64,000 nucleotides of DNA, taken from the NCBI GenBank assembly GCA_964579435.1, contig CAZOGI010000001.1, forward strand, positions 157,907-221,906, in the 5' to 3' direction. Source of the stretch: an uncultured Planctomycetales bacterium (GTDB taxonomy: Bacteria > Omnitrophota > Gorgyraeia > Gygaellales > Profunditerraquicolaceae). Made by a program: the position numbers and the translations under genes. A model generated the notes under the pieces. The model was given only the letters and a program-made list of their open reading frames with translations, did no database searches and was not told the DNA's origin. Positions 1 to 45,688 of the stretch are shown here, in pieces (the first letter of the stretch is position 1; every line of letters starts with the position of its first letter).

Positions 1-480
1 ATAGGGAATAAAGCGTTTGCAGTCAAACGACACCAGCCCCGAGAACTGCCAGTCATCGAGAACCGCTTTGTGCTTGACGACGCCGACATCGATCGAGTGC
101 GGATGGATACTGATGTGCTGAAAGCCGACGGTTGCTTTCAGGCGTTCGCCGGAAAAAGCGGCGTAGCGGAATCCGTAGCCTCCCCCCATATACGTCGGAT
201 AATCCAGTTCGTCCGCCGCCCCGGGGTGCTGCTTGATATATCCCGCCCCGCCCTTGAGGTCGACGCTGAATCGCTGCGTCAATCCGTACGAAAGCAGGAA
301 AAAATCCTGCCACGAGCGCAACTCGCCGGCAGAATGCTCCTGATAGCGGTTCAGGAGCGCATAGCTCTGCAGGCCGATCACGACCTGCCGCTTTTGCGGC
401 TGCGTCGGCCCCATGCAGGGCGCTGCCGTGGCAACCGCGGCCCAGGCCGTCAGAAGAAACCCGATCAGAAAAACCCTCAT
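1..480 (-). CDS. Partial CDS whose 3' end lies beyond the window start: signal-peptide protein, putative outer-membrane beta-barrel-like hypothetical
   Basis: Own translation of the minus strand from ATG at 478-480 gives MRVFLIGFLLTAWAAVATAAP... and stays open for 160 codons to position 1. The start overlaps the stop of the upstream gene as ATGA. It is absent from the ORF track because there is no stop inside the window. The Gly/Tyr/Phe-rich alternating pattern (YPTYMGGGYGFRYAAF) is beta-barrel-like. Confidence 0.5.
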   Translation of the reverse strand, partial: MRVFLIGFLLTAWAAVATAAPCMGPTQPQKRQVVIGLQSYALLNRYQEHSAGELRSWQDFFLLSYGLTQRFSVDLKGGAGYIKQHPGAADELDYPTYMGGGYGFRYAAFSGERLKATVGFQHISIHPHSIDVGVVKHKAVLDDWQFSGLVSFDCKRFIPY

Positions 481-1145
481 TGTCGCTTTCCTGCAGGAAA
501 CCCCCGCAGCGGACACTCCCCGCAGCGCGGATGCTGTTTATGGCAGTATTCTTTCGCGACCCTGACGAACAACGCGTGGTATTCGTTAAATAATTGTACC
601 TCTTTTTTCAGGTTTTTCATGAAAAATTTTTGCGCCTCCTCGTAGGAGACATCCTCCGGCAGCAGACGGTGACGCGCCAGAACGCGTTTCGTGTAGGCAT
701 CGACCACGAAAACCGGGCGGGCGAAGGCATAGAGAAGGATAGAGTCGGCGGTTTCCGGCCCCACGCCGTTGATCCGCAGCAACTCCTCCCGCAACTGCTC
801 CTGCGGCACCTGACGCAGTCGCGTCAGCCGGCCGCCGCAACGCCGCATCAGCCAGCCGAGTGTATTGCGCAGCCGTTGCGCCTTGAGCCGGTAATATCCC
901 GCGGGCCGGATCAACCGCTGCAATCTGCCGGTGCGTATGGATAAAACCCCCCGGAGAGAGAGTGCACGCGCCGCCCTGAGGTTACGGATCGCGCGCTCGA
1001 CGCTACCCCAGTTGGTGTTCTGGGTCAACACCGCTCCGACAATGACTTCGCAGGGGGTGCGCGCCGGCCACCACCCCTGCGGACCAAAATGCCGATAGAG
1101 CAGGCGAAAAAGGGAGCGCACCAGAACCTGTTCCGTGGCCGACAT
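477..1145 (-). CDS. HhH-GPD superfamily DNA glycosylase (endonuclease III-like)
   Basis: Motifs VIVGAVLTQNTNW, INGVGPETADSILLYAF and VFVVDAYTKRV. I prefer the internal ATG (MSATEQVL...) at 1145 over the track start at 1214. Confidence 0.7.
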   Translation of the reverse strand: MSATEQVLVRSLFRLLYRHFGPQGWWPARTPCEVIVGAVLTQNTNWGSVERAIRNLRAARALSLRGVLSIRTGRLQRLIRPAGYYRLKAQRLRNTLGWLMRRCGGRLTRLRQVPQEQLREELLRINGVGPETADSILLYAFARPVFVVDAYTKRVLARHRLLPEDVSYEEAQKFFMKNLKKEVQLFNEYHALFVRVAKEYCHKQHPRCGECPLRGFPAGKRQ

Positions 1146-1149
1146 ACGG

Positions 1150-3111
1150 TTATTCGGAGAACTGCAAGGGGTTATAGCCGTAATAGGCGAAGAGCGTGTA
1201 GGCGGTGCCGGCAACCGAACCAGTGGCTTTACCTTTGGGAGTCACCCAGCCATGGCCGGTATCAACCGACTGTTCCGAGGCATACGGCAGACAACCCTGC
1301 CCTTGTCCCGACGGAGAGGGACTGGAAATAACCATCTTTGCCAACTCATTGAGATAGGCGCTGGCCTTTTCTGCATAGAGCGCGGCCTTCGCGGCCTCGT
1401 TGCGCGAAGCAAAATAGCGCGAGAGGATCTGATACGAAACGACCATCTGGGCGGTCCATTCCGGGGAAACGATGCCGCCGCGGGCCAGGTGCCGCTGCGC
1501 CGCGAAATCAAACCCGCGCACGCGCACCGCCGCTCCCTCCGGGCGCACATAGGAAACCTCGACGCCGCACTGGGTCTCGGCGAACGCCATGATCTCCTGC
1601 GGATCCATGCCCAGCTCGCTGAGCTTTTCCGGTCCGATGCTGGCAATCGACCAGGCATAGGTATCGGTGGCCACCGTAGCATCGCCTTTGCCGCGCTGCA
1701 CCGGAACCTCGCCGCGGTCATAGGTATGCGCCTGGAGCCAGGAGAGCACCCGTTCCGCCGCCTGCTGGTATCGCTCGTGCCCGGTCATACGGCTCAGCAG
1801 ACGGTAAAAAGCGTAGGCATCCAGATTGTGCTCGGTAGCAAACCAGGAGACGTTGGGTCCGCCGCGGATACCGCCGCCGTCATCCTCCTGCTGCAACTGC
1901 AAGATGGCCGCGGCAATCTCCTGCGCCAGCGGCAGAAAGGTCTCGTCACCGGTCTGGCGGGTATACTGCAGCGCCGCGATTCCCAGCCAGATATTGGGTC
2001 CGGCATGCACGACGTATTCCGCAGGCGTCCCGTCGTTGAAATAATAGGCGTTGACGAAGCGGCCGTCGATGCGTTTTGCCCGCTGCGCGAAAAAGGCCAG
2101 GATATTCCGGGCGCGCGCCGCGTCGTTGAAGAGCAGGTACGCCTGCACCGCCAGCGCCTGGTCGTACACGAACGCCCAGCCGCCGACGGCATCGTCCCCT
2201 TCAAAACTCAAGACCAGGCCGGTGCGCGGATTCTGGTGCACCGCCAGCCACTGATACATTTTCTGGATATTGGCCTTCTCCAAGACCGCCTTACGGTGGA
2301 CCAGACGCGCTATCTGGGTGCTCGTCTGCGCCTCATTGGTCCGGACCCGCTGGAGGCGATGCTGCAGGATCGAGCGCTCCGTCAGGAGCTTGCCGATAAG
2401 CGTGTTGAGCTTGCTCAGGCGCTCTTCCTGGCGCAGGGACGAGGTACGCGCCGCCTCCAGATCGTTCAGATGTACCTCCAGCCGCTGCAACTTCTGTTGC
2501 AGATCCGCGCGCGCCGCGCTCAGGGAGTGGATCTGCTGCTCGGCCGCTGAGGTTTCCTGAGAGACTTTGACCAACTGGGAGATGAGCTGCTGGTTGCCGC
2601 TCACCAGCCGCGCGTTCCAAGCCGCGCTCAAAAGCAGACCGGCCCCCAGGAGAACGAAAATCCCGGCCACGATCGGCGCGGTCAACACGCGCGTCCAGGC
2701 AAAACGCAAAAGCATCCTGCCGTCCGCGGCATCGATCTGCTCATAGCGGACGCCGAAGAGATACCGGCCGACCCCGTCGGTATCCTGGCGCATCCAGGCC
2801 GCGGCGCCGCGGGCACTGACCAGGCGCTTGGTGAACGGAGTCTCGATCTCGAGGGAGAATTGTGCCTTCTGGGAAGCGAGCTTTTCTGCGGCGTCGGCGG
2901 AGAAACGGTTAACCGTCAGACAGATCCCGCCTTTACCTATATTGTTGGTGAAACCCTGGAACCACTCGGAGAGAAAATGTTTCCCGTCGCAGCTGACGAG
3001 CCTAAACTCAACCGGCAACACCGTATCCAGACGCAGGTATTGGCGGCGGTTCGACCGGTTGCCGGTGCCGGGCTGCCCCAAAGACTTATGGTCGCTGGCC
3101 GGGATCGTCAT
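1150..3111 (-). CDS. PilZ-domain protein with one TM helix, a coiled coil and a C-terminal (alpha/alpha)6 glycoside-hydrolase-like domain
   Basis: N-terminal PilZ-like motifs RRQYLR and NIGKGGICL. TM segment LTAPIVAGIFVLLGAGLLLSAAW, followed by a Gln/Leu-rich coiled coil. The C-terminal 350 aa resemble a six-hairpin glycosidase fold (WAFVYDQALAVQAYLLFND... NIWLGIAALQY... FATEHNLDAYAFYRLL). ATG at 3109-3111. Confidence 0.6.
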   Translation of the reverse strand: MTIPASDHKSLGQPGTGNRSNRRQYLRLDTVLPVEFRLVSCDGKHFLSEWFQGFTNNIGKGGICLTVNRFSADAAEKLASQKAQFSLEIETPFTKRLVSARGAAAWMRQDTDGVGRYLFGVRYEQIDAADGRMLLRFAWTRVLTAPIVAGIFVLLGAGLLLSAAWNARLVSGNQQLISQLVKVSQETSAAEQQIHSLSAARADLQQKLQRLEVHLNDLEAARTSSLRQEERLSKLNTLIGKLLTERSILQHRLQRVRTNEAQTSTQIARLVHRKAVLEKANIQKMYQWLAVHQNPRTGLVLSFEGDDAVGGWAFVYDQALAVQAYLLFNDAARARNILAFFAQRAKRIDGRFVNAYYFNDGTPAEYVVHAGPNIWLGIAALQYTRQTGDETFLPLAQEIAAAILQLQQEDDGGGIRGGPNVSWFATEHNLDAYAFYRLLSRMTGHERYQQAAERVLSWLQAHTYDRGEVPVQRGKGDATVATDTYAWSIASIGPEKLSELGMDPQEIMAFAETQCGVEVSYVRPEGAAVRVRGFDFAAQRHLARGGIVSPEWTAQMVVSYQILSRYFASRNEAAKAALYAEKASAYLNELAKMVISSPSPSGQGQGCLPYASEQSVDTGHGWVTPKGKATGSVAGTAYTLFAYYGYNPLQFSE

Positions 3112-3133: not shown

Positions 3134-5563
3134 TCATTCCTTCTGACCCTGCGATAGTTTGTTCTGCCGCAGGACTATATGTTGTTTGCACCGGTATGCC
3201 AGGCGCTGCATAAATTCCCTGAATGCCGCGTACTCCGGAAGCGGAACCGTTGATTTCTTACGCACCAGCTCCTGCCTAAAAAATATTGTATTCTTTTTCT
3301 GGCGGTATGCAACCGTAAAAGACAGCCAGGGACTGTCTTCAAAGAAACTCTCCGGAAGCGAAAGGACGCTCAGGCTTGCAGGCAATTCGATCTGGAACTC
3401 ATTCTCCTTGGCTTCCAGGCATTCAAATTCAAGCGGATAGCTGCGCCTGGCCAGGGCGACCGCTGACACATCCAGGGAGGGAAGCTGCGGGATGATGCGC
3501 AGCGATCCGGCGCGCGCGAAATACTCCGGCCCGCGGAAAGAGTACCGCAGCAACGGCGTCTCTCCCAGCCCGGCGGCGTTCCTGGTCTCGTACCGGGACA
3601 GCTGCGCCCCGATAGAAAAATCCTGTATCCTGCCGGCCAGCTCCTGCTCGATGAGCTCCGGGGGCGTGAAGAGGAACCAGTGGCGCATGGCCTGCGCGTT
3701 CAGCCCGTAGGAAAGAACCGTCCGCTCCGCCAAAACCGATTCAGCATCAGCCTGTACCCACAGCTTCAGATCCTGCTTAAGCAGATTGTGGGCGGCCGCA
3801 AACGCCGGCGTCCGCAGGATCCGGTAGCCGTCGGGGCCGCAGAGCAGCACCGTGCGGTCCTGGTCGCCCAGCGGCAGATCCCCGAACGAGCAGGTCTGTG
3901 CCGTCGGATCGAGAAAAACCGTCTCCCCGTCGATCTCGGTGGCGGCGATACAATGGTTAAAGAGCACCGTCGAGAAATCGGCGCGCATGTCGGGCAGCTC
4001 CTTTGTCGGGATAAGCACCGGCCATCCCGGCAGCCCGGCGGCGCGCAGCATCGTCACCAAGAGAACCGCCTGATCTTTACAGTCGCCGTACTTGTTGCGG
4101 AAGATATCGGCGGCGGCGTGCGGCTCATACCCGGCCTCGCCGTATTCGACCGCGACATAGCGGATCTCCTGCGCACAATACTCGTAGAGCGCCTCTGCGC
4201 GTTCCCGCGGCGAACGCGCAGAACGCAGGAGCTCCCCGATTTTAGCCTGGATCGCCTCGTCCGCCCGGATCTTATCCTTCGCCAGATTCCACCACCACTC
4301 GTACACCTCCTGCCAGTCGTCAAACGTCGACAACAACACCGTCGGATTGATCCGGGCCTCCTCGGGCATGAGCGGCTCGGGAATGATCTGGGGGATATCC
4401 GCCATCACCCACTCATAGGCCGGCCCCCGCGCGGTCTCGGTTACGACCGGCTGCATCTTTACCCCGAAAGAGTTGTATTCCTCGTTGAGCAGGAGCGAAG
4501 AGAGCCTGCGTCCCGGAGGCAGGCTGACCTGAAGCGCCGCGCGCATGATCGGCTCACCCGACTGCACCGGATAGCGCAGCACAAAATCCTTGCCGTTGAT
4601 GAGCTCGTGCGAGACGATACGCGCCCGGTACTCGACGACCGAACCGACCGCCACTTCGGGGAAAGAGATGATGAGAACGCGCGCGTTGCTGTAGAGGGGG
4701 AAATTCAGGTACTTCGAAACGTCCCGCAGGTGCCTCGTCCCGACGTCGACGACCGTCCCGTCGGGCTTGATCGTGCGGGCATACTCCAGCTCTATCTTTT
4801 CGTACGTCGAATCGTACTCGAGGGGCAGCTCCGAGAATGCCTCTTTGCCGCGCTCGTTGAGGATCTTAATGACGTAATGCAGGCTCGTCTCCTGGCCGTT
4901 GCCGGGGCCGACGCTTAAACGTTCGTCACAGAGCAGGATGAGGGCGCCCGCCTGCGGGTACCGCTCTTTCCCCGGGGCTGCGGCGATCAAGGCGCTGATC
5001 TCGGGAGCGGCATCTCTGATATGAACCAGTCCCATTTGGCGTTCGATCGCGCCGATGCGCTCGGCGGCCCGGCCGGCAAATGCGGGTTGGGTGATCAAAC
5101 GGTAGTGCTGCAACGCCTGATCAAAGAGGTTCAGTTTCTCGGCGGTGAGGGCGCGGAAATATCGCATTTCTTCGTCAACGGGATCGTGCGTGCGCAACAC
5201 CTCCAGGGCATCGGTATACTGCCCGAGCCGATACAGCGTTATCCCCAGGTATTTGCGTGCCTCGGGCAGTGCGCTTTGACGCAGATGCTCCAGGGCTTTC
5301 TCGAACTCCGCGTGATCGAAATAGAGCCTCCCCAGCGCCGCATGCGTGCGGTCGGTATCGATGCCGCGGAGCAAACCTTCCTGATAGCCTGCAACCGCTT
5401 GACGGTAATAGGACGCCGAAACCTCCGCCAAACGAGCGGGAGAAGCGAGTCGTTCCTGACGGCAGCCGCCGGCGCAGCAGAAAAATGCCCCCAGCAGGAA
5501 CGCGCTCCCCAGAAGAACGCCCCGCTTTTTTCCCCCGAAGCGATTACGTAACGCGGTATTCAT
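3134..5563 (-). CDS. Transglutaminase-like (DUF3857-type) lipoprotein with N-terminal TPR repeats
   Basis: The internal ATG at 5561-5563 (MNTALRNRFGGKKRGVLLGSAFLLGAFFCCAGGC, a lipobox-like signal) is chosen over the 922-aa track ORF. TPR-like segment LGRLYFDHAEFEKALEHLRQ. Transglutaminase core Cys in YGDCKDQAVLLVTMLRAAGLPGWPVLIPT. Confidence 0.6.
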   Translation of the reverse strand: MNTALRNRFGGKKRGVLLGSAFLLGAFFCCAGGCRQERLASPARLAEVSASYYRQAVAGYQEGLLRGIDTDRTHAALGRLYFDHAEFEKALEHLRQSALPEARKYLGITLYRLGQYTDALEVLRTHDPVDEEMRYFRALTAEKLNLFDQALQHYRLITQPAFAGRAAERIGAIERQMGLVHIRDAAPEISALIAAAPGKERYPQAGALILLCDERLSVGPGNGQETSLHYVIKILNERGKEAFSELPLEYDSTYEKIELEYARTIKPDGTVVDVGTRHLRDVSKYLNFPLYSNARVLIISFPEVAVGSVVEYRARIVSHELINGKDFVLRYPVQSGEPIMRAALQVSLPPGRRLSSLLLNEEYNSFGVKMQPVVTETARGPAYEWVMADIPQIIPEPLMPEEARINPTVLLSTFDDWQEVYEWWWNLAKDKIRADEAIQAKIGELLRSARSPRERAEALYEYCAQEIRYVAVEYGEAGYEPHAAADIFRNKYGDCKDQAVLLVTMLRAAGLPGWPVLIPTKELPDMRADFSTVLFNHCIAATEIDGETVFLDPTAQTCSFGDLPLGDQDRTVLLCGPDGYRILRTPAFAAAHNLLKQDLKLWVQADAESVLAERTVLSYGLNAQAMRHWFLFTPPELIEQELAGRIQDFSIGAQLSRYETRNAAGLGETPLLRYSFRGPEYFARAGSLRIIPQLPSLDVSAVALARRSYPLEFECLEAKENEFQIELPASLSVLSLPESFFEDSPWLSFTVAYRQKKNTIFFRQELVRKKSTVPLPEYAAFREFMQRLAYRCKQHIVLRQNKLSQGQKE

Positions 5564-6638
5564 AGGAAATGGCACAACTCCCTTCCCGGGAGACCATACA
5601 CGGCCCCAGCGGAGACTGCGGCCTACAGCGGCGCGCGAACAACGGGCAGCGCGGCGGATCGAGCTTTCCCCGCAACACCGCAGCACAGCGACAGCCTTCC
5701 CGGGGAGAAACCGGCTGCCTCTGCCTCCGCAGCGCAACGGCATGCCGGGCATCAAAATGAGCGAATTGCGCCCGGAAAGAGAATCCGCTTTCCGCGATAG
5801 AGCCGAACCCGCGCCAGACCGCAGCTTTCGGTTCGAAGACGCGATCCAGGATGCGCTGGGCATGCACATTACCCTGTGGCCGCACGACCCGGCTATATCC
5901 ATTCTCGACCCGCGCGATGCCGCGGCGCAACTGCCGCAACAGCGTCAAGATCCCGCAGAGCATATCCGCAGGCTCAAACCCGGCCACACAACAGCCGATG
6001 CCGTACGTCCGGGCAAACGGCTCATACGCGCGCGTCCCGATAATAACCGACACATGCCCGGGACAGAGGATGCCGCTGATATCGACACCCTTGCCGCGCG
6101 CCAGGAACGAGAGGACCGGCGGGATACGCTTGAGCGCGTTGAGAAAAAAAAGGTTCCCGACCTTCTGGCGGCTGGCCTGCAAAACCGCCAGCGCCACTGC
6201 CGGGGCAGTTGTTTCGAATCCGACACCCAAAAAGACAATCTTTTGTCGCGGATTCTCCCGCGCCAGGGAGAGAGCCTCCAGCGGCGAATAGACCGTGCGA
6301 ATCCGGGCACCGGCTGCACGCGCCGCGGCAAGACTGCCAAAACTGCCCGGGACCAGCAGCATGTCCGCGAAGGTCGCCACCTGAACCCCGGGCGAGCGGG
6401 CATAGGCGATCGCCGTATCGATATAGCGTTGGTCGCTGACGCAGATCGGACAGCCGGGACCGGAGACCAGGCGGACCGTCTTCGGCAGATACCGGTTCAG
6501 GCCGAAGCGGTGGAAGGCGCGGGTATGCGTCCCGCAGACCTCCATCAGGACCGCCGGTTCCCGCGGCGCAAAGCGCTGCAGAAGCCCTCCGAGCCGTTCC
6601 AGATGCCGCGGGGAGCGGAACTCGTCAACAAATCTCAC
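5544..6638 (-). CDS. hypD: Hydrogenase maturation factor HypD
   Basis: N-terminus MRFVDEFR..., then LMEVCGTHT, GPGCPICV, and a C-terminal Cys cluster. GTG start at 6636-6638. Overlaps the hypC stop. Confidence 0.85.
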   Translation of the reverse strand: MRFVDEFRSPRHLERLGGLLQRFAPREPAVLMEVCGTHTRAFHRFGLNRYLPKTVRLVSGPGCPICVSDQRYIDTAIAYARSPGVQVATFADMLLVPGSFGSLAAARAAGARIRTVYSPLEALSLARENPRQKIVFLGVGFETTAPAVALAVLQASRQKVGNLFFLNALKRIPPVLSFLARGKGVDISGILCPGHVSVIIGTRAYEPFARTYGIGCCVAGFEPADMLCGILTLLRQLRRGIARVENGYSRVVRPQGNVHAQRILDRVFEPKAAVWRGFGSIAESGFSFRAQFAHFDARHAVALRRQRQPVSPREGCRCAAVLRGKLDPPRCPLFARRCRPQSPLGPCMVSREGSCAISYEYRVT

Positions 6639-6834
6639 GTAACACCCTCAGGGTCTCGGCGGCCCGCCGGGGATCGATCTTCTCGATGGCGAAACCGGCA
6701 TGGACCAGAACATACTCCCCGACCGCGACGCCCGGGACCATGGCGATGTTTATCCGTCGCTGCAGCCGCCCGGCAGCGACCGTGGCAAACGAGCCCTCTT
6801 TACTGACGATCTTCAACGGAACGGCAAGGCACAT
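6625..6834 (-). CDS. hypC: Hydrogenase assembly chaperone HypC/HupF
   Basis: N-terminal MCLAVP motif, 69 aa, directly upstream of hypD. Confidence 0.85.
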   Translation of the reverse strand: MCLAVPLKIVSKEGSFATVAAGRLQRRINIAMVPGVAVGEYVLVHAGFAIEKIDPRRAAETLRVLREIC

Positions 6835-6837
6835 ATC

Positions 6838-7983
6838 TTAACCCTGGAAAGAAGAAAACCGGCTCTTCGGTGAACAGGAAGCGATGACCGCCTGCCCGAG
6901 GGAGACCGACGCGTCCCCCGCGGGAAGCCGGCGATGCACCCGCACGCAAAACCCCGCTTTATATAGTAACGCACCCAGGTGCTCCCGCACAAGGGTATTG
7001 TGCATGACCCCGCCCGCAGCCACCACCGTGTTGATTCCCGTTCTGGCGCGCAGGCGCACGCATACCGCCGCAGCAAGGTGCGCCACGGAATAGTGCAGCG
7101 CGGCCGCAATATCCGCGCGGCTTTGTTTGGCCTTCAGGTCAACGACGATCCCGCGCACGATCCCACCGAGGGCAACCTCCAGGCATCCTGCACGTTCCCG
7201 CAGGCGGTACGGATACAGCCGCGGCGGGTTCCGGCTGCGGCGGGCCAGCGCTTCGAGTGCCCGCGGCAGCTGCGCCTCGGCGCACGAATCCCGGCAACAC
7301 AGGATGATGCTCGCCGCGGCATCAAAAAGACGCCCGGCGCTGCTGGAGAGCGGCGACGCAAATCCGCTGGCAGCCAGCGCCAGAACCGCCCGTGCTTTTT
7401 TGCGGGGAAGGCCTTTTAAAAAACTCAAGCCCTGCCGCCACAGACGCTCGCCGTAGAGACGCTGCAGCCATACCAAAGCCACCCGCCACGGCTCCCGGAT
7501 CGCCGCTTCTCCTCCGGGCAGAACAACAGTCTCAAGGTGCCCGGCGCGGATATAGCTGCGGTAATCGCAGATCAAAAACTCTCCTCCCCACAGCGTGCCG
7601 TCGCTGCCGTACCCGGTGCCGTCAAAAGCGATGCCGATCACCCGGCGGTTAGGCAGGCCGCTTTCGGCCATAGCCGCAGCGATATGCGCGTGGTGATGCT
7701 GGACGCGGACCAGGGCCACCCGGCGCCGGGCCGCCACCTCCTGCGCGTACCGGGACACGCTATAGCCTGGATGCAAATCCGCCGCCAGAACGTGCGGCCC
7801 CCTCTGCATCCACCGACGGACCGCTTCCCTGAAGCGCACGCGCTGGCGATACTCGCTGCAGTCGCCGTGGAGACGCGAGAAAGAGGCGGACCGGCCGGAG
7901 GCGAAACAGAGGGTATTTTTCGTTTCGGTGCCGAAGGCCAAAACCGGGGTCGGAACCGGGAAAGGCAGCGCAAGCCTATGCAT
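6838..7983 (-). CDS. HypF-like carbamoyltransferase, Kae1/TsaD-like C-terminal domain only (no acylphosphatase, Zn-finger or YrdC domains)
   Basis: AFGTETKNTLCFASG matches the start of the HypF Kae1-like domain. Histidine-rich HHHAHIAAA and GGVMHN motifs. The start was moved to the internal ATG (MHRLALPF) at 7983. Adjacent to hypC and hypD. Confidence 0.6.
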   Translation of the reverse strand: MHRLALPFPVPTPVLAFGTETKNTLCFASGRSASFSRLHGDCSEYRQRVRFREAVRRWMQRGPHVLAADLHPGYSVSRYAQEVAARRRVALVRVQHHHAHIAAAMAESGLPNRRVIGIAFDGTGYGSDGTLWGGEFLICDYRSYIRAGHLETVVLPGGEAAIREPWRVALVWLQRLYGERLWRQGLSFLKGLPRKKARAVLALAASGFASPLSSSAGRLFDAAASIILCCRDSCAEAQLPRALEALARRSRNPPRLYPYRLRERAGCLEVALGGIVRGIVVDLKAKQSRADIAAALHYSVAHLAAAVCVRLRARTGINTVVAAGGVMHNTLVREHLGALLYKAGFCVRVHRRLPAGDASVSLGQAVIASCSPKSRFSSFQG

Positions 7984-8818
7984 CGTTTCCCTCCGCAGCC
8001 ACCAGCTCCAACGAAACGATCGCATCGACCCGGAACGTCCGCTCGGCACCGCGCAGCAGGCAATGCCCGCGCACGTACGAAACGCCGTTTTCCTTGAGGA
8101 TCTGCTGCGGCACGATCAAACGTTGGCTGAGCGGGCCGCCGCTTTTCGCCAAGTAGCGAATCGCAAGGCGCGCCCCGTCGTCGATCGCCTCCTGGATGCG
8201 CGAGATCTTTTCCTGTTCGCGGGCAGCCAAAGCGCTGTGGGGAAGCGCACAAAGATCCAGGAACGTATCGGTATCCCTGATGCCTTTTGCCTGCAGCAGA
8301 CCAAGCAGGGCCAGAAAAACACGCGCGGTCAACTCCACATCCGCTCCGGCGCGGTGCGCCTGAGGAATGCCCAGGCCCAGCGCCTGCGCCACCGCCTGCA
8401 GCGAATAGCGCTCCTGTCCCGGCAAGAGCCGGCGCGCCAGCCGCAGGATATCCGCCACTATCATCTCTGCCGGTTCCGCCAACCCTGCCGCTGCAAGCTC
8501 GGCGCGCAAAAACGCCAGGTCAAAACGGGCGTTGTAGGCGCAGACGCAGCTGCCCTGGATAAAGCGCAGAAACTCCGGCAGCACCGCGCGGCAGACGGGC
8601 TTGCCCGCCAGCATTGCGTCGCTGATATGGTTGACCGCGAAGGCGGCCGGCGACACCGGGCGTTGCGGATCGATGAGTGTTTCAAAAACCGCCTCGGTCA
8701 CGTCCCCGCGCAGACGCAGTGCCGCCAACTCGACGATACGGTCTCCCGTCTCCGGATTCAGTCCGGTCGTCTCGGTATCGAATATGGTAAAAACGGTACG
8801 GTCAAGCGCCTGTCCCAT
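7976..8818 (-). CDS. DnaQ-like 3'-5' exonuclease (DEDDh) fused to a C-terminal WYL-like domain
   Basis: Exo I motif FDTETTGL, then YNARFDLAFL and HRAGADVELT. C-terminal LAIRYLAKSGGPLSQRLIVPQQILKENGVSYVRGHCLLRGAERTFRVDAIVSLELV matches the WYL consensus (the ...RtFrldRI.. motif). Confidence 0.6.
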   Translation of the reverse strand: MGQALDRTVFTIFDTETTGLNPETGDRIVELAALRLRGDVTEAVFETLIDPQRPVSPAAFAVNHISDAMLAGKPVCRAVLPEFLRFIQGSCVCAYNARFDLAFLRAELAAAGLAEPAEMIVADILRLARRLLPGQERYSLQAVAQALGLGIPQAHRAGADVELTARVFLALLGLLQAKGIRDTDTFLDLCALPHSALAAREQEKISRIQEAIDDGARLAIRYLAKSGGPLSQRLIVPQQILKENGVSYVRGHCLLRGAERTFRVDAIVSLELVAAEGNDA

Positions 8819-10544: not shown

Positions 10545-12068
10545 TTAGAACGTCCATTCCAAAGACAACTCTACCTGGTAAGCCGCATCCGCCTTTGCGT
10601 CTCCCCGCACGAAAGGGGTCAAAAGGCTCCCGTCGACGTCATCGCGCCGCTCCCGGTAAAAATTCCCGGGGATAAAGTAACCGGCAAGCAGGCTTACCAG
10701 GGCGCGTTCGTTCATTTGATAATCGAGCGTCACATCCACTTCATAGCCCAGCTCTGCCGAGAGCGCGCGCGGCTCCCCTTCCCACATGCCGACCCCCCGG
10801 GCAAAACAACGAAGATAGTATCCCTGCACCGTCACCAACACCGCATCGGTGAGGGATACCTCACAGCCCAGAGAAGGCATCAGCAGATTATCGTAATCAG
10901 ACGCCCCGAAGGTCCCGGGACGGGGAACCCCGTAATTGAGACCCCACCCGCTGCCCATTGCCACCAGCGGCTTGGCATCGCAGCTCTCCTGGCCGATGGA
11001 GTCGCCCTGGGCCTGATTGAGCGACGAGAAGACGCTGAACGCCCGGTTTTTGCCGCGGGAGAGTGTCGCATCTTGCGCCAACACTTCCTCCTCGGTAACG
11101 GCGTTGCCGGAACAGACGAGGAATTCCCCGAACGGGACGACCCGTTCTTTCCCGTAGGCTACCCTGCCGTATACCAGATATCCCTGATGCTGAATATCCT
11201 TAAAGGAGGGGTCGCCGCTTTGGGCAACCCCGAAATTGCGGGCGCACTCCGCCTTGAACGCAAAAGGCGCAGCCTCATAGGTCAGGGCAAACCCTGCGGT
11301 GCCGAGGATATCGTGCTTTACCGGCGCGCCCCAGAGCGAATCGCGTTTGCCGGCCGCAGTATAATCGCTTAGTACCCCGCAGTACGGCTGCAGCCACAGC
11401 CGCTCCCTGCGCCAGGAGAGATCAGCTGCCCAGAAGTTGATCGCCCCCGGATGGTAATCAATCCCTTGCTCCTCGTCCTGACGGATACGCGCACCGAGAT
11501 GGTTTTTCAGGTGCGCGTCCGGCCGGCAGTAGTAGAGGTGCCAGGAGAACGGCTCCGCCTCGCGGTACAATTTCACGCCGATGTTCTCATAACTGCCGTT
11601 GAGGCTCATCCCCAGTCCGACGACATAGCTCGTCAGGCCGGCCTGGACCCGGAAACGGTCCCGCCAGGGCACATCCACCCACAACTCCTCCAACTGCGGG
11701 AGAAGCTCATCGTCACGGTACGCCTCGATGCGGCCGCCCGACGTCAAAAGAGCATTGCTTACCCACAGCGGCGCCGAATAATCGAACGGCCCGTTGCGTT
11801 CTATCTTCAGATATGCCCGCAGGCCATCGTCTTTGTGCGTATACCCCAACCCCAGGCTGTAATCAAACCCGATCGACGCGCTGCGGTCATCGGTGTTGCG
11901 ATGATCGAGGTCCACCGTATTCTCGAAAGTCACCGCATCCGTGCGTTGATACAGCTGCAGGGTCACCTCGGCCCGGGGCGTATCCATAACCGTCAAAGCC
12001 TGCGCGCCGCCTCCGCCGGCACACAGCACCCCCGCCAGACCAAAAACAAGAAAAACTGCCCGCCGCAT
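10545..12068 (-). CDS. Putative outer-membrane beta-barrel protein (alginate-export/porin-like)
   Basis: Signal peptide MRRAVFLVFGLAGVLCAGGGGAQA. Alternating aromatic/Gly beta-strand pattern. C-terminal ...LEWTF aromatic terminus. Confidence 0.4.
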   Translation of the reverse strand: MRRAVFLVFGLAGVLCAGGGGAQALTVMDTPRAEVTLQLYQRTDAVTFENTVDLDHRNTDDRSASIGFDYSLGLGYTHKDDGLRAYLKIERNGPFDYSAPLWVSNALLTSGGRIEAYRDDELLPQLEELWVDVPWRDRFRVQAGLTSYVVGLGMSLNGSYENIGVKLYREAEPFSWHLYYCRPDAHLKNHLGARIRQDEEQGIDYHPGAINFWAADLSWRRERLWLQPYCGVLSDYTAAGKRDSLWGAPVKHDILGTAGFALTYEAAPFAFKAECARNFGVAQSGDPSFKDIQHQGYLVYGRVAYGKERVVPFGEFLVCSGNAVTEEEVLAQDATLSRGKNRAFSVFSSLNQAQGDSIGQESCDAKPLVAMGSGWGLNYGVPRPGTFGASDYDNLLMPSLGCEVSLTDAVLVTVQGYYLRCFARGVGMWEGEPRALSAELGYEVDVTLDYQMNERALVSLLAGYFIPGNFYRERRDDVDGSLLTPFVRGDAKADAAYQVELSLEWTF

Positions 12069-12096: not shown

Positions 12097-12468
12097 CTAT
12101 TGCAGATATTTGCGGATAAACCGGAAGAGCTCTTGCCACTGGAACGGCTTTATAAAGTAATCCTTGGCGCCGAAGGCCATCCCCTCCTCGATATACTGGG
12201 TCTGGCCTTTGGCCGTCACCATGATAACCGGGATCTCGTGGGTGGCATCATGGGCCTTGAGCTGCCGCAGGAGCGTCAATCCGTCCGGGTGCGGCATGAG
12301 GATATCCAGGAGGATGAGGTCCGGCCGCTCTTGGACCGCCAGGGCGAGCGCTTCGGAGGAGTTGGTGGCGCAGATCGCCCGGTACCCTTCGCGCTCCAGG
12401 CGTTCCCGCATGAGCGAGACCACCTCTGGTTCGTCGTCGATCACCAGCAGCGTGTACGGTTTCTTCAT
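12097..12468 (-). CDS. Stand-alone response-regulator receiver domain (CheY-like)
   Basis: The internal ATG gives MKKPYTLLVIDDEPEV...LILLDILMP...VIMVTAKG, 123 aa. The start overlaps the stop of the upstream radical SAM gene by 4 nt. Confidence 0.7.
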   Translation of the reverse strand: MKKPYTLLVIDDEPEVVSLMRERLEREGYRAICATNSSEALALAVQERPDLILLDILMPHPDGLTLLRQLKAHDATHEIPVIMVTAKGQTQYIEEGMAFGAKDYFIKPFQWQELFRFIRKYLQ

Positions 12469-13877
12469 CTGCCTCGCAACAGCATCTTGGCCAAACCCCA
12501 GGCTGCCTGCATATTGAGCCTGAACCGGTTGAGACTGCGCATGCGCAGGAACTCCCTGACGATCTTGGACGGACGCAGATAAAAAGAACGGTATGCCCGG
12601 TGCTGCCATGCCAGCAACTCCTCCGGAGTCAACCCCGGGAGACGATGGATCGGCGGCGTATGGATCCCGAAACGGCGGTAATCGCGGGTCAGGATCGCGT
12701 CTTTGCTCAGGAGGAAATCGTACACCTCGCTTCCGGGATAGGGCTTCAGGATATGGAATTTGGCGATGTCCGGATCGAGCTCTTGGGCAAAGGATATCGT
12801 CTGACGGATCGAATCGGGGGTCTCCGCAGGCAACCCGATCATAAAAAACCCCCACAGCTCCAGGCGTAATTCCCGCGCCAGCGCGAACACCTCTTTGAGC
12901 CGGGCGATGTGCGTTCCCTTATGCGCCGCGTCCAGAACCTCCTGGCTGCCGGATTCCACCCCGATAGCCAGACTGTAGGTCCCCATCTCCTTGAGCGCCG
13001 TTAATACCTCGCGCGAAAGAAAATCGGCGCGGATCCCGTTGGGAAAGGCGAAACAGACCTTGAGCTTGCGCCGCTGGATCTCGTCGCGGATGGCGAAGAC
13101 CCGTTGGCGGTCGGTCGTGAAATTGTCGTCCCAGACATGGATCTCGCGGATACCGTAGCGGCGCACCAACTGTTCGATTTCATCGGCAACCCGCAGCGCG
13201 CTGTGCGCCCGGAAGACCCGGCCGCAAACCCGGTGTGACATGCAGTAGCTGCACCGGCCGGGACAGCCGCGGCTGGTCATGATCGGCGCGGTCCGGCGGT
13301 AAAGCGCGTCGGGATACGTGTAGTGGGTGACCGAAAAAAGGTGCCGTGCCGGAAAGGGCAACCGGTCCAGATCCGTCAGAAGCGGACGCGCTTCATTTTC
13401 GACAATACCCCCGGTTTCGTCCTTGTATGAGAGCCCGCGCACGCCGGCATAAGAACCCCCGGCCTTCAGACAATCAACCAGCTCCCGCAGCGTCTCCTCC
13501 CCTTCCCCGCGCACGACCATATCGACCGCCGGATTCCGCAACACCTCCCGCGGCAGGATCGTCGGATGCGTTCCCCCGAAAACGACGCGGGTCTGCGGAC
13601 TGTATCGCTTGACCGCGGCAGCCAGGTCAAACGCGGTAAAGAGCAGCGGGGTCGTGACGGTGCAGCCGAAAAGGTCGAAACGTTCGGCGCGGATCAGCGC
13701 GACAAAATCGTCGAGCGTCAGGCGCTGGGCCTCCATATCCACCACGCGCACCTCTTCCTGCAGGAGCATCGCCGCCAGGTAGGCCAGTCCCATATGCAGC
13801 TGCACCGGGGAGCGCATCGGCCCGTAGATATCGCTGGCGGGGGGATTGACCAGCAGGATGCGTACGTTCTTTTTCAT
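12465..13877 (-). CDS. B12-binding-domain radical SAM protein
   Basis: N-terminal B12-binding-like MKKNVRILLVNPP... Radical SAM MTSRGCPGRCSYCMSH CxxxCxxC-type cluster. ATG at 13875-13877. Confidence 0.7.
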   Translation of the reverse strand: MKKNVRILLVNPPASDIYGPMRSPVQLHMGLAYLAAMLLQEEVRVVDMEAQRLTLDDFVALIRAERFDLFGCTVTTPLLFTAFDLAAAVKRYSPQTRVVFGGTHPTILPREVLRNPAVDMVVRGEGEETLRELVDCLKAGGSYAGVRGLSYKDETGGIVENEARPLLTDLDRLPFPARHLFSVTHYTYPDALYRRTAPIMTSRGCPGRCSYCMSHRVCGRVFRAHSALRVADEIEQLVRRYGIREIHVWDDNFTTDRQRVFAIRDEIQRRKLKVCFAFPNGIRADFLSREVLTALKEMGTYSLAIGVESGSQEVLDAAHKGTHIARLKEVFALARELRLELWGFFMIGLPAETPDSIRQTISFAQELDPDIAKFHILKPYPGSEVYDFLLSKDAILTRDYRRFGIHTPPIHRLPGLTPEELLAWQHRAYRSFYLRPSKIVREFLRMRSLNRFRLNMQAAWGLAKMLLRGR

Positions 13878-13897
13878 CGTGGCAGAGGAGGCGTCGT

Positions 13898-13935
13898 TAA
13901 AAAAAACTCCGCACAAAACGTGCGGAGTTTTTTGT
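13898..13935. terminator. Bidirectional rho-independent terminator
   Basis: Perfect 9-bp stem actccgcac/gtgcggagt with a 5-nt loop, flanked by an A8 run upstream and a T6 run downstream, so it functions on either strand. Lies between the entericidin-like gene and the radical SAM gene. Confidence 0.6.
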
Positions 13936-20255: not shown

Positions 20256-21596
20256 TTAATTTCCCCCGGGCTCGATCCCGGTAACCGTGCTGATAACCTC
20301 TCCCCGGGAGAGCCGCGTTCGCAGCCGCTGTCCCGGAGCGAGCGTCGCGGCATCCTTCACCACCGCGCCGGAAGGATCCTCAAAGGTAATACTGTACCCC
20401 CGCGCCAAAACCGTCAGGGGGCTGAGGCTCTGGAGTTTCGCGGTCAGGGTGGAAAATGCGGCGGCGCGCAGCGCCACCAAATGCGCTGCCTCCTGTGTCA
20501 GGCGCGTCAGGCACTGCCGCAACTGCTCCCGCGAGCGCACGACGTGCGCGCGGGGATTGACCAAAAACAGCTTTTTGAACGCCGCCTCCGCGCTCTGCCG
20601 GCGTAAGGCAAGGGCATGTTCCGCCGTCACCCCCAGGCGCCGCTTCAGATCCTGGACATCCTGTGAGCAACGCTCTATCTCTTCCCGCAGCAGGCGCCGC
20701 AGGCCCTGCAGGGCAACCCCGAGGCGCCCCGACAGATCCTCCTTCCGGGGGATCACCAGCTCCGCGGCAACCGACGGCGTCGCCGCGCGGACATCGGCGA
20801 CCAGATCGGCAATCGTCCAATCGCTCTCGTGACCGACCGCCGAGACGACGGGGATCGTCGAATCGTAGATCGCGCGGGCCACCGCTTCTTCGTTAAACGC
20901 CCACAGATCTTCGATGCTGCCCCCGCCCCGCCCGACGATCAAAACCTCGACGCGCTCGGTCGCGGGAACGGCGCGATTGTAGTCATTGAAATCCTGAATC
21001 GCCCTGACAATATCCTCTTTCGCCCCCTCTCCCTGCACACGCACGGGAGCGATAAGGACCGGAACGCTGGCGTGACGGCGCGCGCAGACCTTCAGGATAT
21101 CCCGCAGCGCAGCACCCTGTGCGGAGGTAACTACCCCTACGCGACCGGGGAGTGCCGGCAAGGCCCGTTTATGCTCCAGCGCGAACAACCCTTGAGCCTG
21201 CAGTTTCTTCTTCAGCTGCTCCAAGGCTAGTTGCAGGCTCCCGATCCCTTGCGGCTCCATCTTGGCGATGACCAGCTGGTACCGGCCATGGGGCGGGTAC
21301 ACTTCGACGGATCCGAAACAGACCACCTTTTGCCCGTCCTGCAGCTTAAACGGGATGGCGGAGGCAGCGCGGTTGAAAACCACGGCCTGCAGGAGCGCCT
21401 CGCTGTCTTTCAAAGAAAAATACCAATGTCCGGCAGCCGAGCATTTGCAATTGGAAATCTCCCCCTCCACCCATACGTCGCAAAAGGTCTGCTCCAGGAT
21501 ACTGCGGATATCGCGGGTGATCTCCGCGACCGAGTAGACGCGGCGCTCTTCTGCCGCGGGCGCAGGGGATAAAGCGACATGAGAGCGTGGGCGCAT
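20256..21596 (-). CDS. xseA: Exodeoxyribonuclease VII large subunit
   Basis: N-terminal OB fold (YSVAEITRDIRSILE..VWVEGEISN) plus catalytic domain, 446 aa. Confidence 0.85.
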   Translation of the reverse strand: MRPRSHVALSPAPAAEERRVYSVAEITRDIRSILEQTFCDVWVEGEISNCKCSAAGHWYFSLKDSEALLQAVVFNRAASAIPFKLQDGQKVVCFGSVEVYPPHGRYQLVIAKMEPQGIGSLQLALEQLKKKLQAQGLFALEHKRALPALPGRVGVVTSAQGAALRDILKVCARRHASVPVLIAPVRVQGEGAKEDIVRAIQDFNDYNRAVPATERVEVLIVGRGGGSIEDLWAFNEEAVARAIYDSTIPVVSAVGHESDWTIADLVADVRAATPSVAAELVIPRKEDLSGRLGVALQGLRRLLREEIERCSQDVQDLKRRLGVTAEHALALRRQSAEAAFKKLFLVNPRAHVVRSREQLRQCLTRLTQEAAHLVALRAAAFSTLTAKLQSLSPLTVLARGYSITFEDPSGAVVKDAATLAPGQRLRTRLSRGEVISTVTGIEPGGN

Positions 21597-23383
21597 CAGG
21601 GGGTCTCCCCGGGCTCAACCGCCGGCGGCGCGGCGGGGATATCTTTTCGTAAGACCAAAAGCTGGAGCGAATAGGGCAAGAGCGGCAGGAGGAGTTCCGG
21701 CTCTTTCTCCGGCTCCAGCAGCCGCGTCTCCAGCGGCTCAAAGGCCTGTTCCTGATTGGCCCCGTCTATCGCGAAACGCTGGTACTGATACCTGCCGGGG
21801 GCATTGCGCAGGCGCACGCGCAGGTGCCGGGGGTGTTCCTTTGCCTGCTCTGCCGCAGCGCGCAATTCCTGCGCCTCCTGCACGACCGTGCGCAACCGCC
21901 GGGTGAGACGGACGGTGCGCGGATTGATCGAGCCTTTGAGTAAATCTTCAAACTGCCCCGTAGAGACGAGATTCAAGAGTATCCGCCGCTCCCCTTCGCG
22001 CAATCCGGCGATCATGCGCGAGAGCAAACTGCGCACGGGATCCGGATCGATATACTGCGCGATCAGGATCGCGAAACCGTCGGGGGTCCGGGTGGGGATG
22101 ACCGTGACGAAATCGTCGTTCGTGCGCACCCCGGAGACGATCCAATTCTTCCCGAGGCGGGAGAGCATCCGCAGCGCCCCGTAAACCGCTTTTCCCTGTC
22201 CCTTGTAATCGCGACTCTGTGCGTCGTAGGAAAAAGCCCCGACGTTACGCACGACGCCGGCGGGATTCGCCTTAAAATCCTCGAGGCAGAAAAAAAGGGC
22301 GTAATCGATCCCCGCCTCGTACATCCCCTTCAGGCGCGCCGGCAGATAGCTGGCGCTGATATGGGAGGCCCCGCCGCGTTCGGACGCATCGTTGGCGCCG
22401 GCGTCGAAATTCCATTCTGAGACAATGAGAGGGGTCGTATGGTCGAATTTGAAATACCGCAGCCAGTCGCGGATCAGATAGACGGCACTACGCCGCTTGT
22501 ACACGCTCTGTTCCTGCTCTACCTTCGGATCGGTCGCGTAGGCATGCCAACTGATAAAATCGAGCGGCAGCCGGTAATGGAAACAGAACCGGATCAGTTC
22601 GTACATGAGGCTGCGCTCGGGGTTCAGCGCGGTGTTTCCGTCTATCGTCTGGAACCACCAGCTGGTGCTGGGGCCCCCAACCGGGATCTGGAGGCCGTAT
22701 TGCGCTTCCAGCTCCTTGACCGCCTCTGCAACCGCACGGTACAGGTACAGATACTCTAACTTGCTGCCGAGAAAAAAGCCGTCCAAATCCGGCGCGCTCC
22801 AAACCTCATACCAAACGGCGTAGCGTTTTTCGCAGCTTAAAAGACGGATCAACTCTTTGACCAGCGCTTTGTACGCGCGCATATCGACCGGCGGGCTTTT
22901 GGGATCAAGCACCTTGCCCAGCCCGGCCGGCGTCCCGAAAAGGCTCAAGAGGACCGTTCCTCCTCCGTCGCTGATCTCCTTGATGATCGTCTCGTAATTG
23001 CGCAACAAGGCCTGCTGTTGAGCGGGGTCCTTGGCAAGCTCATGCACCTGCCAGAGGTTATAGCGCAGACGCAGCATCCCGGCGCGGCCGATCTCGGAAA
23101 ACCAGACGTCCAAGACATGCGGGTCGGCCACCGATTTCGGCCACGCCGGGTCGGCGTGGAAACCGCGTCCGCTGATGTCGATGTTCGGCTGGAAAATCTG
23201 CGGAAGGGGCACGGGGGGCGAGGCCAAGTCAAGGGTTACCTCAACGGTCTTGGCCGCAGCATCCGGCAGCGCAGCCAGCGGCTGCGAGCGCGCGCAACAG
23301 AAACACGCCGCAAAAAAAAGCGCGGCGCATCCGCTGCCGCGCAGGCGGCGGATCAGGCACAGGGCGAAAGGTTCATGCGGCAT
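21596..23383 (-). CDS. Secreted TIM-barrel glycoside hydrolase (GH-A clan-like) with Pro/Leu-rich C-terminal tail
   Basis: Internal ATG at 23383 gives signal peptide MPHEPFALCLIRRLRGSGCAALFFAACFCCARS. VSEWNFDAG is candidate nucleophile-region context. No precise family assignment is possible by eye. Confidence 0.5.
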   Translation of the reverse strand: MPHEPFALCLIRRLRGSGCAALFFAACFCCARSQPLAALPDAAAKTVEVTLDLASPPVPLPQIFQPNIDISGRGFHADPAWPKSVADPHVLDVWFSEIGRAGMLRLRYNLWQVHELAKDPAQQQALLRNYETIIKEISDGGGTVLLSLFGTPAGLGKVLDPKSPPVDMRAYKALVKELIRLLSCEKRYAVWYEVWSAPDLDGFFLGSKLEYLYLYRAVAEAVKELEAQYGLQIPVGGPSTSWWFQTIDGNTALNPERSLMYELIRFCFHYRLPLDFISWHAYATDPKVEQEQSVYKRRSAVYLIRDWLRYFKFDHTTPLIVSEWNFDAGANDASERGGASHISASYLPARLKGMYEAGIDYALFFCLEDFKANPAGVVRNVGAFSYDAQSRDYKGQGKAVYGALRMLSRLGKNWIVSGVRTNDDFVTVIPTRTPDGFAILIAQYIDPDPVRSLLSRMIAGLREGERRILLNLVSTGQFEDLLKGSINPRTVRLTRRLRTVVQEAQELRAAAEQAKEHPRHLRVRLRNAPGRYQYQRFAIDGANQEQAFEPLETRLLEPEKEPELLLPLLPYSLQLLVLRKDIPAAPPAVEPGETP

Positions 23384-42385: not shown

Positions 42386-42393
42386 CCGCATCC

Positions 42394-43200: not shown

Positions 43201-43273
43201 TTAATTTCAAATAGTTACAAATTGTTCCACGCGGAACATTTTGATTGCCCTTGATTCTTTATCTATTGTCCTT

Positions 43274-45419: not shown

Positions 45420-45688
45420 TCCGTCGAATTGGGATAAATTATAACACATTGTTATCTCAAGTCAACACTAAATGTTTCGACTCTAGAAAAATCTGCAAAG
45501 CAAAACCCCGATGGGATTTTCTCGGGCGGCGCAAAACACAGAAGGGACTGTCGTTTCAATTTTATGTTGACTTCCCGAAAAGGGGCTGTATAATAATCAA
45601 ACGATTTTAAAATACCTGTCCTTTTTAGCCTGACAAAATCTTTCCACAGAGTTATTCAGTTTGTTGATAAACTGTGGATTCTGTGCAC
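45420..45688. other. Putative oriC segment with dnaA promoter region: AT-rich stretch with degenerate DnaA boxes
   Basis: AT-rich 45425-45500 (gggataaattataacacattgttatctcaagtcaacactaaatg). Near-consensus DnaA boxes (TTATCCACA/TGTGGATAA): ttgttgataa (1 mismatch), tgtggattc, ctttccaca, tgggataaa, ttatctcaa. TATAAT at about 45590. The gene strand switch occurs here. Confidence 0.45.

Follow-up and report, generated by a model that had tools for sequence, protein, structure and literature searches.

The best-characterized proteins in which a PilZ domain, a receptor for cyclic di-GMP (c-di-GMP), is fused to another module act in the cytoplasm, where they gate the BcsA synthase, serve as a flagellar brake (YcgR and MotI), or control transcription (MrkH). 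Alg44 cooperates with a synthase inside a membrane complex; it has a periplasmic membrane-fusion (HlyD-like) domain, and its gene lies in the alginate operon together with that of the Alg8 synthase. LapD, a membrane-spanning c-di-GMP receptor with periplasmic output, combines a degenerate EAL sensor with a periplasmic Cache/PAS-like domain. Here, we describe a gene from Omnitrophota, a candidate phylum with almost no cultured members, whose product joins a PilZ domain through a single transmembrane (TM) helix and a predicted helical hairpin to an (alpha/alpha)6 barrel of glycoside hydrolase (GH)-like fold. The gene was found in a stretch of 64,000 nucleotides (positions 157,907 to 221,906 of contig CAZOGI010000001.1, assembly GCA_964579435.1), which we call the window and which comes from a genome deposited as an uncultured Planctomycetales bacterium and placed in Omnitrophota by GTDB.

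Among described systems, the fusion is nearest to Alg44 in topology, and the shape of its outer domain is nearest to that of MmpH/GH15-type hydrolases, but it is a member of neither. Like Alg44, it has an N-terminal PilZ domain of the canonical type, whose C-terminal helix continues into the sole TM helix, beyond which lies the periplasmic part, and in both proteins control by c-di-GMP is presumed to come from the cytoplasm. A preliminary description of the gene, made from the letters of the window, had called this an Alg44-type architecture. The PilZ-TM-periplasmic topology agrees with that description, but the membrane-fusion domain is missing (no HlyD or membrane-fusion protein family was matched in the fusion at E <= 0.1 with Pfam and NCBIfam), and no Alg8- or BcsA-type synthase is encoded nearby. 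Unlike the membrane-anchored fusion, the methylmannose polysaccharide hydrolase MmpH, from the actinobacterium Mycolicibacterium hassiacum, is a soluble enzyme of the cytoplasm. The likeness to LapD and its partner LapG lies in a membrane-spanning receptor with periplasmic output next to a gene for a transglutaminase-fold cysteine protease; in contrast to LapD, however, the fusion combines a PilZ sensor with an enzyme-like barrel, and its protease-like neighbor is absent in about one-third of the loci. Our literature search, on PilZ proteins and on Omnitrophota, turned up no description of a PilZ-barrel fusion.

We read the product of this gene as a bitopic inner-membrane protein in which the sensing of c-di-GMP in the cytoplasm is coupled to a carbohydrate-active domain in the periplasm, for membrane-anchored glycan processing, and on balance we consider this reading probable. 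The architecture of the fusion and its phylum-wide conservation are solid, while its function is what we infer.

Distribution of the fusion across Omnitrophota

A protein search returned more than 1,180 full-length homologues (635 to 670 amino acids) at 50 to 55% identity, with E values down to 1e-243, showing that the open reading frame (ORF) is not a chance product of a GC-rich genome. Nearly all of their named sources are metagenome-assembled genomes (MAGs) of Candidatus Omnitrophota. Public annotations list these homologues as “hypothetical” or “PilZ domain-containing,” or mislabel their coiled coil as Lpp or TolA-binding protein. Scanning the GTDB species representatives with exact peptide patterns, which makes the resulting figure a lower bound, we found the domain in at least 326 genomes. 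The locus counts given here (74, 71, and 59 loci) were drawn from the best 80 of these at least 326 genomes, counting only scorable cases; almost all of the 80 are labeled Omnitrophota or carry generic MAG labels. PilZ was fused to the barrel in 74 of 74 scorable loci, and no paralogues of the barrel or of the PilZ domain were found elsewhere in the window. The PilZ-barrel fusion is a core, syntenic, single-copy gene present throughout the candidate phylum.

Some of the MAG records (L007, L011, L013, L014, L018, L020, and L069) bear the title “uncultured Planctomycetales bacterium” or “Deltaproteobacteria bacterium,” yet contain a gene of the typical Omnitrophota type; these titles are probably submission-level labels and not true occurrences outside Omnitrophota. 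The genome of the window is itself unusual among the sampled relatives, with a GC content of 61% and a PilZ fusion that forms a singleton cluster, being at most 55% identical over its full length, and at most 67% identical over the barrel only, to any other sequence found.

The PilZ domain and its c-di-GMP motifs

Residues 21 to 137 of the protein match the Pfam model PF07238 with 24.1 bits, compared to a gathering cutoff of 22.5 bits, and an E value of 4.9e-5, and precomputed annotations report the same model for about half of the homologues. In a structural model obtained with AlphaFold2 (AF2), the PilZ strands lie between residues 33 and 126 and are followed by a helix that starts at residue 128, with predicted local distance difference test (pLDDT) values of 81 to 90. 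The canonical PilZ domain is a six-stranded beta-barrel followed by a C-terminal alpha-helix (bioRxiv 10.1101/814665). A family profile restricted to the PilZ part aligns over the whole domain with that of MotI/YpfA from B. subtilis (PDB 5vx6; E value of 0.006), which binds c-di-GMP, and places both motifs in register (RRQYVR in MotI with RRKYIR in the family and NISAGG with NIGKGG).

The two motifs that the preliminary description had named in the window protein, RRQYLR and NIGKGG, the latter with glycine instead of the canonical serine, are indeed present, as R22 to R27 and N57 to G62. Conservation in 120 homologues is high for both of them. R23 and R27 are kept in 120/120 sequences and R22 in 102 (85%), while the second motif has N or D at position 57, I, V, or L at position 58, and G at position 62 in 100% of the sequences. 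When compared to the refined PilZ motifs, RxxxR and [D/N]hSxxG (Galperin and Chou, bioRxiv 10.1101/814665), the protein agrees with the consensus at every position except the serine. This position, 59, is occupied by G in 71 of the 120 homologues (59%), by S in 40 (33%), and by A in 6 (5%). Given that G, S, and A mix at position 59 while R23, R27, and G62 are kept in all sequences, Gly59 appears to be a tolerated variant of the family rather than a sign of decay. Judging from the motifs, it is likely that the PilZ domain of the fusion binds c-di-GMP. According to a review, PilZ domains in fusion proteins invariably keep binding, and the C-terminal helix of the domain is the likely read-out element (bioRxiv 10.1101/814665). 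In one relative, a PAS-GGDEF-HD-GYP gene lies on the same contig as the fusion, indicating that enzymes of c-di-GMP turnover exist in these organisms.

It could be argued that the PilZ domain has lost c-di-GMP binding and now only anchors a constitutively active periplasmic enzyme on the cytoplasmic side, or mediates protein interactions for it, since some PilZ proteins are known not to bind (bioRxiv 10.1101/814665), the Pfam score is barely over the cutoff, and glycine replaces the motif serine in the window protein and in more than half of the family. However, nonbinding PilZ domains typically lose RxxxR (bioRxiv 10.1101/814665), whereas here two of its arginines are invariant and R22 is kept in 85% of the sequences, and one-third of the members carry the canonical serine in an otherwise identical motif, suggesting one shared, selected function. 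We regard the loss of binding as quite improbable.

Membrane topology and the helical hairpin

The hydropathy profile contains a single membrane-spanning candidate (Kyte-Doolittle value of 2.38 over 19 amino acids), with no second segment above 1.6, and a proline within it, P146, is invariant in the homologues. The N-terminal PilZ end of the fusion carries no signal peptide. The AF2 model was built from an alignment of 41 sequences (mean pLDDT of 81.5 and predicted template modeling score of 0.69) and lays out the protein as a beta-barrel (residues 33 to 126), an unbroken helix that includes the TM segment (128 to 224), a turn (225 to 228), a return helix (229 to 291), and a 12-helix barrel that extends to the C terminus. 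Because the first helix is unbroken, the PilZ C-terminal helix, the TM helix, and the first coiled-coil arm would form one rod. The cytoplasmic PilZ domain, single TM helix, coiled coil, and outer six-hairpin domain proposed in the preliminary description are therefore borne out by Pfam, hydropathy, and AF2.

In the model, the two arms of the hairpin measure about 55 residues each. Across the 120 homologues, insertions and deletions of this region occur at only one site, between residues 225 and 226, that is, at the predicted tip, and this pattern independently supports the hairpin geometry predicted by AF2. Hydrophobic residues occupy the heptad positions at frequencies of 0.75 and 0.67 in the two arms. 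The coiled-coil region falls into length classes of 110, 117, 124, and 131 residues, i.e., steps of 7 residues, which are compatible both with an extended coiled coil and with a hairpin. A hairpin would place the barrel near the outer face of the inner membrane and not far out in the periplasm. That the barrel is extracytoplasmic is independently supported by two sequence features, namely, the evident signal peptides of many stand-alone relatives of the barrel, in which the domain starts near residue 30 to 40, and two cysteines of the outer domain (C515 and C607) whose invariance is confined to the fusion family.

Fold, family, and conserved acids of the outer barrel

Structural comparison of the outer domain returned MmpH (PDB 7QSJ) as the top fold match, with a score of 31.5 and a root mean square deviation of 2.6 Å over 305 residues, at 13% identity. 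It was followed by a GH15-related structure (5z3a; 28.8), cellobiose and GlcNAc 2-epimerases and YihS (26 to 28.7), a GH8-like structure (3ren; 27.0), GH88 (26.7), and GH76 (23 to 25.6). Foldseek concurs on the fold, with GH76 structure 6u4z at an E value of 2.6e-8. The closest match of the barrel thus falls within the clan GH-L-like inverting (alpha/alpha)6 hydrolases (GH15, GH125, and MmpH), and the fold as a whole is that of inverting or retaining glycosidases and of sugar epimerases. In MmpH, the catalytic residues are D47/D50 and E262 (PMC9883506); no match between the barrel and MmpH was found at the sequence level. The earlier claim of a glycosidase-like outer domain is correct with respect to the modeled six-hairpin fold, supported by AF2 and Foldseek, but the fold alone names no GH family, and no family could be assigned from the sequence either, as the one candidate, GH76, always stayed below the cutoff.

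GH76 was the only recurrent match to the barrel at the sequence level. With the single fusion sequence, a search of the PDB returned only coiled-coil noise, while searches with family profiles returned weak matches to GH76 and MotI; with a broad profile, 10 of 15 PDB matches were GH76, at E values of 0.01 to 0.17. The Pfam model of GH76, PF03663, matched 9 of 10 family members (best E value of 8e-5) with 19.2 to 20.7 bits, always below the cutoff of 25.9, covering helices 4 to 7 only and positions 100 to 202 of the 366 in the profile; in the window protein, the match spans residues 379 to 474 and scores 19.2 bits. In HMMER alignments, the Asp-Asp pair of GH76 (DDNIW in 4mu9; AAMEW in 6shm, which carries D136A/D137A) falls on the invariant G371-P372 (GPNIW) of the family. 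The GH76 alpha-1,6-mannanases BT_3782 (4MU9) and Aman6 (4D4A) share the (alpha/alpha)6 fold with the barrel, but GH76 lacks the conserved acids of the fusion family at the aligned positions. With subcutoff scores and the catalytic Asp-Asp replaced by Gly371-Pro372, canonical GH76 can be ruled out. GH76 is the nearest sequence relative of the barrel without including it, and the barrel is best described, from its sequence, as an uncharacterized (alpha/alpha)6 family with its own conserved acidic site.

To delimit this family, we carried out an exhaustive phmmer census of the window barrel against 1.84 billion cluster representatives. It yielded 917 proteins at E <= 1e-3, of which 110 were at E <= 1e-30, corresponding to about 900 clusters at 50% identity. 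The top 150 relatives include 57 PilZ fusions, 27 stand-alone proteins, 27 other multidomain proteins, and 17 giant proteins of 1,486 to 7,886 amino acids. In the fusion family, invariant residues account for 71% of the positions in the first turns of the inner helices and for 42% of those in the long loops, compared to 14% in the loops on the opposite face, so that, in the model, they concentrate where (alpha/alpha)6 enzymes have their active sites. Conservation extends to distant relatives. Among 60 non-PilZ relatives of the barrel, at 30 to 40% identity, Y316-D317 is kept in 59, G371 in 60, E427 in 60, D477 in 57, D483 in 59, and E551 in 59. These residues contribute to a strongly conserved acidic and aromatic pocket on the face equivalent to the active site of such enzymes, and the presence of five conserved carboxylates on one face suggests catalysis or, at a minimum, specific binding of a sugar.

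The same observations bear on the possibility that the barrel is a noncatalytic glycan-binding or scaffold module, in which case the protein would be an Alg44-like adaptor that, upon binding c-di-GMP, holds or guides a polymer or recruits a synthase or export component encoded elsewhere. Such a role would suit the PilZ-TM-periplasmic topology, which is that of Alg44, and the replacement of the GH76-type Asp-Asp by Gly-Pro throughout the superfamily; by analogy, the hairpin may also resemble the periplasmic hairpins of membrane-fusion proteins. On the other hand, 95 to 100% conservation of five acids at the N termini of inner helices, in proteins that share only 30 to 40% identity, is more characteristic of a catalytic than of a binding function. 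The domain is moreover found in secreted stand-alone proteins and in giant multienzyme proteins, and neither a HlyD/membrane-fusion domain nor a synthase in the window or in related loci was found. A scaffold function is therefore unlikely in our view, and we continue to favor an enzyme-like domain that processes a glycan. The features of the fusion and of its two flanking genes are listed in Table 1.

Table 1. Features of the PilZ-barrel fusion locus (positions in the window)
Feature	Residues	Position	Strand	Basis or remarks
PilZ-barrel fusion gene	653 amino acids	1150..3111	(-)	Uninterrupted ATG-to-stop ORF; PilZ, TM helix, helical hairpin, (alpha/alpha)6 barrel
PilZ domain, predicted cytoplasmic c-di-GMP receptor	21-127	2731..3051	(-)	Pfam PF07238; MotI alignment; AF2 beta-barrel
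RRxxxR motif	R22-R23-Q-Y-L-R27	3031..3048	(-)	Conservation in 120 homologues
[D/N]hSxxG-type motif	N57-I58-G59-K60-G61-G62	2926..2943	(-)	Conservation in 120 homologues
Single TM helix, continuous with PilZ C-terminal helix	142-166	2614..2688	(-)	Hydropathy; AF2
Predicted periplasmic antiparallel helical hairpin	167-279 (arms ~167-224 and 229-279; tip 225-228)	2275..2613	(-)	AF2; indels; heptads
(alpha/alpha)6 barrel, GH-like, uncharacterized family	280-653	1153..2274	(-)	Candidate active-site acids D317, E427, D477, D483, E551
Upstream gene: TPR + DUF3857 + transglutaminase-core + DUF3858 lipoprotein		3134..5563	(-)	Pfam; likely start M114 of ORF 3134..5902
Downstream gene: HhH-GPD/endonuclease III-like base-excision repair protein		477..1145	(-)	Pfam HhH-GPD, E 6e-15

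The barrel in giant proteins

Homologues of the barrel at 33 to 38% identity lie inside the proteins of 1,486 to 7,886 amino acids mentioned above, one of which is annotated as Candidatus Omnitrophota. This is P0256, recorded as [quoted passage not shown] In giant proteins of 3,000 to 7,900 amino acids (P0196, P0206, P0223, P0226, P0256, P0261, and P0275), the barrel is sometimes repeated, and many TM segments are present. Giant Omnitrophota proteins have been read as degraders of prey cell walls, and one of them, “Archaeovorin,” contains a GH76-like (4C1S) region found by structure prediction only; small pilZ genes adjoin the giant genes (bioRxiv 10.1101/2023.11.21.568195). Since the barrel family occurs inside proteins of up to 7,886 amino acids, the GH76-like region of Archaeovorin, set beside the fusion barrel by its description, is likely the same module. 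The two settings differ in that the barrel of Archaeovorin-type giants is one module among many, with a proposed action on the prey wall, whereas the fusion anchors it in the inner membrane of the cell itself, behind a PilZ domain.

Genomic context

The gene directly upstream encodes a lipoprotein whose lipobox cysteine is kept in 34 of 39 homologues and whose residues C495, H537, and D552 (numbered from M114) are invariant. Given this invariant Cys-His-Asp triad, the transglutaminase-fold lipoprotein is probably an active enzyme. The preliminary description had taken this “next gene” as consistent with envelope or EPS (exopolysaccharide) remodeling. Its domains are as stated, and it has a lipobox, but the gene lies upstream in the order of transcription, and its absence from this position in about one-third of the loci makes it weak evidence for the function of the fusion. 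A transglutaminase-like gene is directly upstream in ∼38 of 59 loci (∼64%), usually with a gap of -4 to +7 nucleotides. It is missing from this position in the remaining ∼21 loci, where RNaseT-WYL (12 loci), HypD (6 loci), or Aminotran_4 (1 locus) abuts the PilZ gene instead. At the level of these loci, the transglutaminase lipoprotein thus does not behave as an obligate partner.

LapG is a transglutaminase-like protease under the control of a c-di-GMP receptor, and an inside-out pair of the LapD/LapG kind can be conceived here too, with the PilZ protein sensing c-di-GMP and its periplasmic part binding and controlling the cotranscribed transglutaminase-fold cysteine protease or transglutaminase. 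The intact triad and lipobox of the neighbor, its adjacency in most loci, and a spacing that suggests translational coupling would all be expected from such a pair. Yet the PilZ protein is unchanged in the loci that lack the transglutaminase gene at this position, and the acidic pocket of the barrel is also found in relatives with entirely different contexts. We consider such a pair very improbable and retain the reading in which the barrel itself processes a glycan.

Downstream, the likely ATG of the HhH-GPD gene, at 1145, lies 4 nucleotides past the stop codon of the PilZ gene. In 66 of 71 loci, this gene follows the fusion in the same orientation; it is a syntenic neighbor that is probably unrelated in function. 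In the window, the fusion belongs to a same-strand block (CxxCxxCC, LPG_synthase_C, RNaseT-WYL, the C-terminal half of HypF, HypD, the TPR-DUF3857-transglutaminase lipoprotein, the PilZ fusion, and HhH-GPD), and the order of this functionally heterogeneous block recurs in divergent Omnitrophota contigs. This synteny by itself points to an origin of the window in Omnitrophota. A search for exopolysaccharide (EPS) synthases, proposed in the preliminary description, found none nearby. In three related loci, no polysaccharide synthase, glycosyltransferase, or export gene lies within 10 kb, and a Pfam scan of the large ORFs of the 64-kb window found no EPS locus or synthase.

The window is the neighborhood of the replication origin (oriC) and is full of housekeeping genes. 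The genes parA, parB, and yidC lie on the minus strand at 41531-45023, followed on the plus strand by dnaA (45674-47038), dnaN, gyrB, and gyrA, up to 53.5 kb; GC content drops from ∼0.61 to 0.43 to 0.48 at 42 to 48 kb, where GC skew also changes sign. The PilZ gene lies ∼43 kb from dnaA, within a housekeeping syntenic block.

Several other genes of the window deserve mention. The HypF protein of the block is reduced to its Kae1-like C-terminal half (∼370 to 400 amino acids), without the acylphosphatase or zinc-finger N terminus (5544-8049, minus strand, in the window; 5216-7624 in locus L003). Its gene, together with those for HypC and HypD, is flanked by the RNaseT-WYL and transglutaminase genes; no hydrogenase or hypE is nearby, and only some of the Omnitrophota loci have the Hyp cassette. 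An ORF of ∼505 amino acids without confident annotation has a conserved place in the block (10545-12068, minus strand, in the window; 1348-2856 in locus L001); in the window, it has a weak, subthreshold match to Alginate_exp, an alginate export porin family (E value of 3.3e-4; 20.0 versus 25.2 bits). The housekeeping block also contains a gene for a B12-binding radical SAM enzyme (12465-13916, minus strand). The ORF at 21596-23551 (minus strand; 651 amino acids) matches GH39 with an E value of 2.6e-12; it is flanked by xseA and other housekeeping genes, at a distance of 18 kb from the PilZ gene, to which it is not linked in related loci. GH39 includes the Psl exopolysaccharide hydrolase PslG. 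Finally, an ORF of 1,734 amino acids at 56285-61489 (plus strand) has no Pfam match even at an E value of 0.01 and contains neither a barrel nor a PilZ domain.

Proposed mechanism

We propose that c-di-GMP would bind to the site formed by RRxxxR and N-h-(G/S)-x-x-G and shift the packing or dimerization of the PilZ C-terminal helix. This change may then pass through the rigid helix, the TM segment, and the hairpin to alter the activity, the oligomeric state, or the access of the periplasmic barrel, which would cleave or otherwise process a membrane-proximal glycan of the envelope. In the barrel, E427 and E551 would most likely act as the acid/base pair, with D317, D477, and D483 as sugar ligands or alternates. 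For a single-copy gene found throughout the phylum and set in a housekeeping block, a core envelope or periplasmic glycan of Omnitrophota is a more likely substrate than an accessory exopolysaccharide. Trimming of a polysaccharide under c-di-GMP control is a reasonable hypothesis.

Several points weigh against this reading. The motif serine, which contacts c-di-GMP in characterized PilZ domains, is glycine in the window protein, and a Ser-to-Ala exchange at this position abolishes binding in YcgR; the Gly/Ser polymorphism at position 59 is the main caveat on c-di-GMP binding. AF2 monomer predictions can artefactually fold a dimeric coiled coil as a hairpin. With regard to the barrel, the (alpha/alpha)6 fold is also found in epimerases and isomerases, lyases, terpene cyclases, and noncatalytic binders, and the catalytic Asp-Asp of GH76, its nearest sequence family, is absent. 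E427 and E551, each of which starts an inner helix, are preferred as acid/base candidates by position only. The gene context provides no clue to the substrate, the neighbors being genes for DNA repair, RNase, Hyp maturation, and peptidase functions.

Implications for Omnitrophota biology

A fusion of PilZ to a polysaccharide-related domain is in itself unsurprising; what is new here is a PilZ effector with an extracytoplasmic, enzyme-like output. If true, such coupling of a PilZ domain, across the membrane, to an enzyme-like domain in the periplasm would give c-di-GMP an output of a different kind. Nor is the fusion a rarity, since its single-copy core gene is conserved across the entire candidate phylum. 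The substrate of the barrel bears on two questions, namely, the envelope biology of Omnitrophota and the function of the giant proteins implicated in predation. A more far-reaching interpretation, which we put forward tentatively and consider possible rather than probable, is that of a phylum-wide inside-out c-di-GMP device, in which PilZ would switch a periplasmic enzyme of an unrecognized GH family via the helix, TM segment, and hairpin, with the same catalytic module being used in Archaeovorin-type giants. If this were true, it would link second-messenger signaling to the processing of envelope or prey glycans in ultrasmall, host-dependent bacteria.

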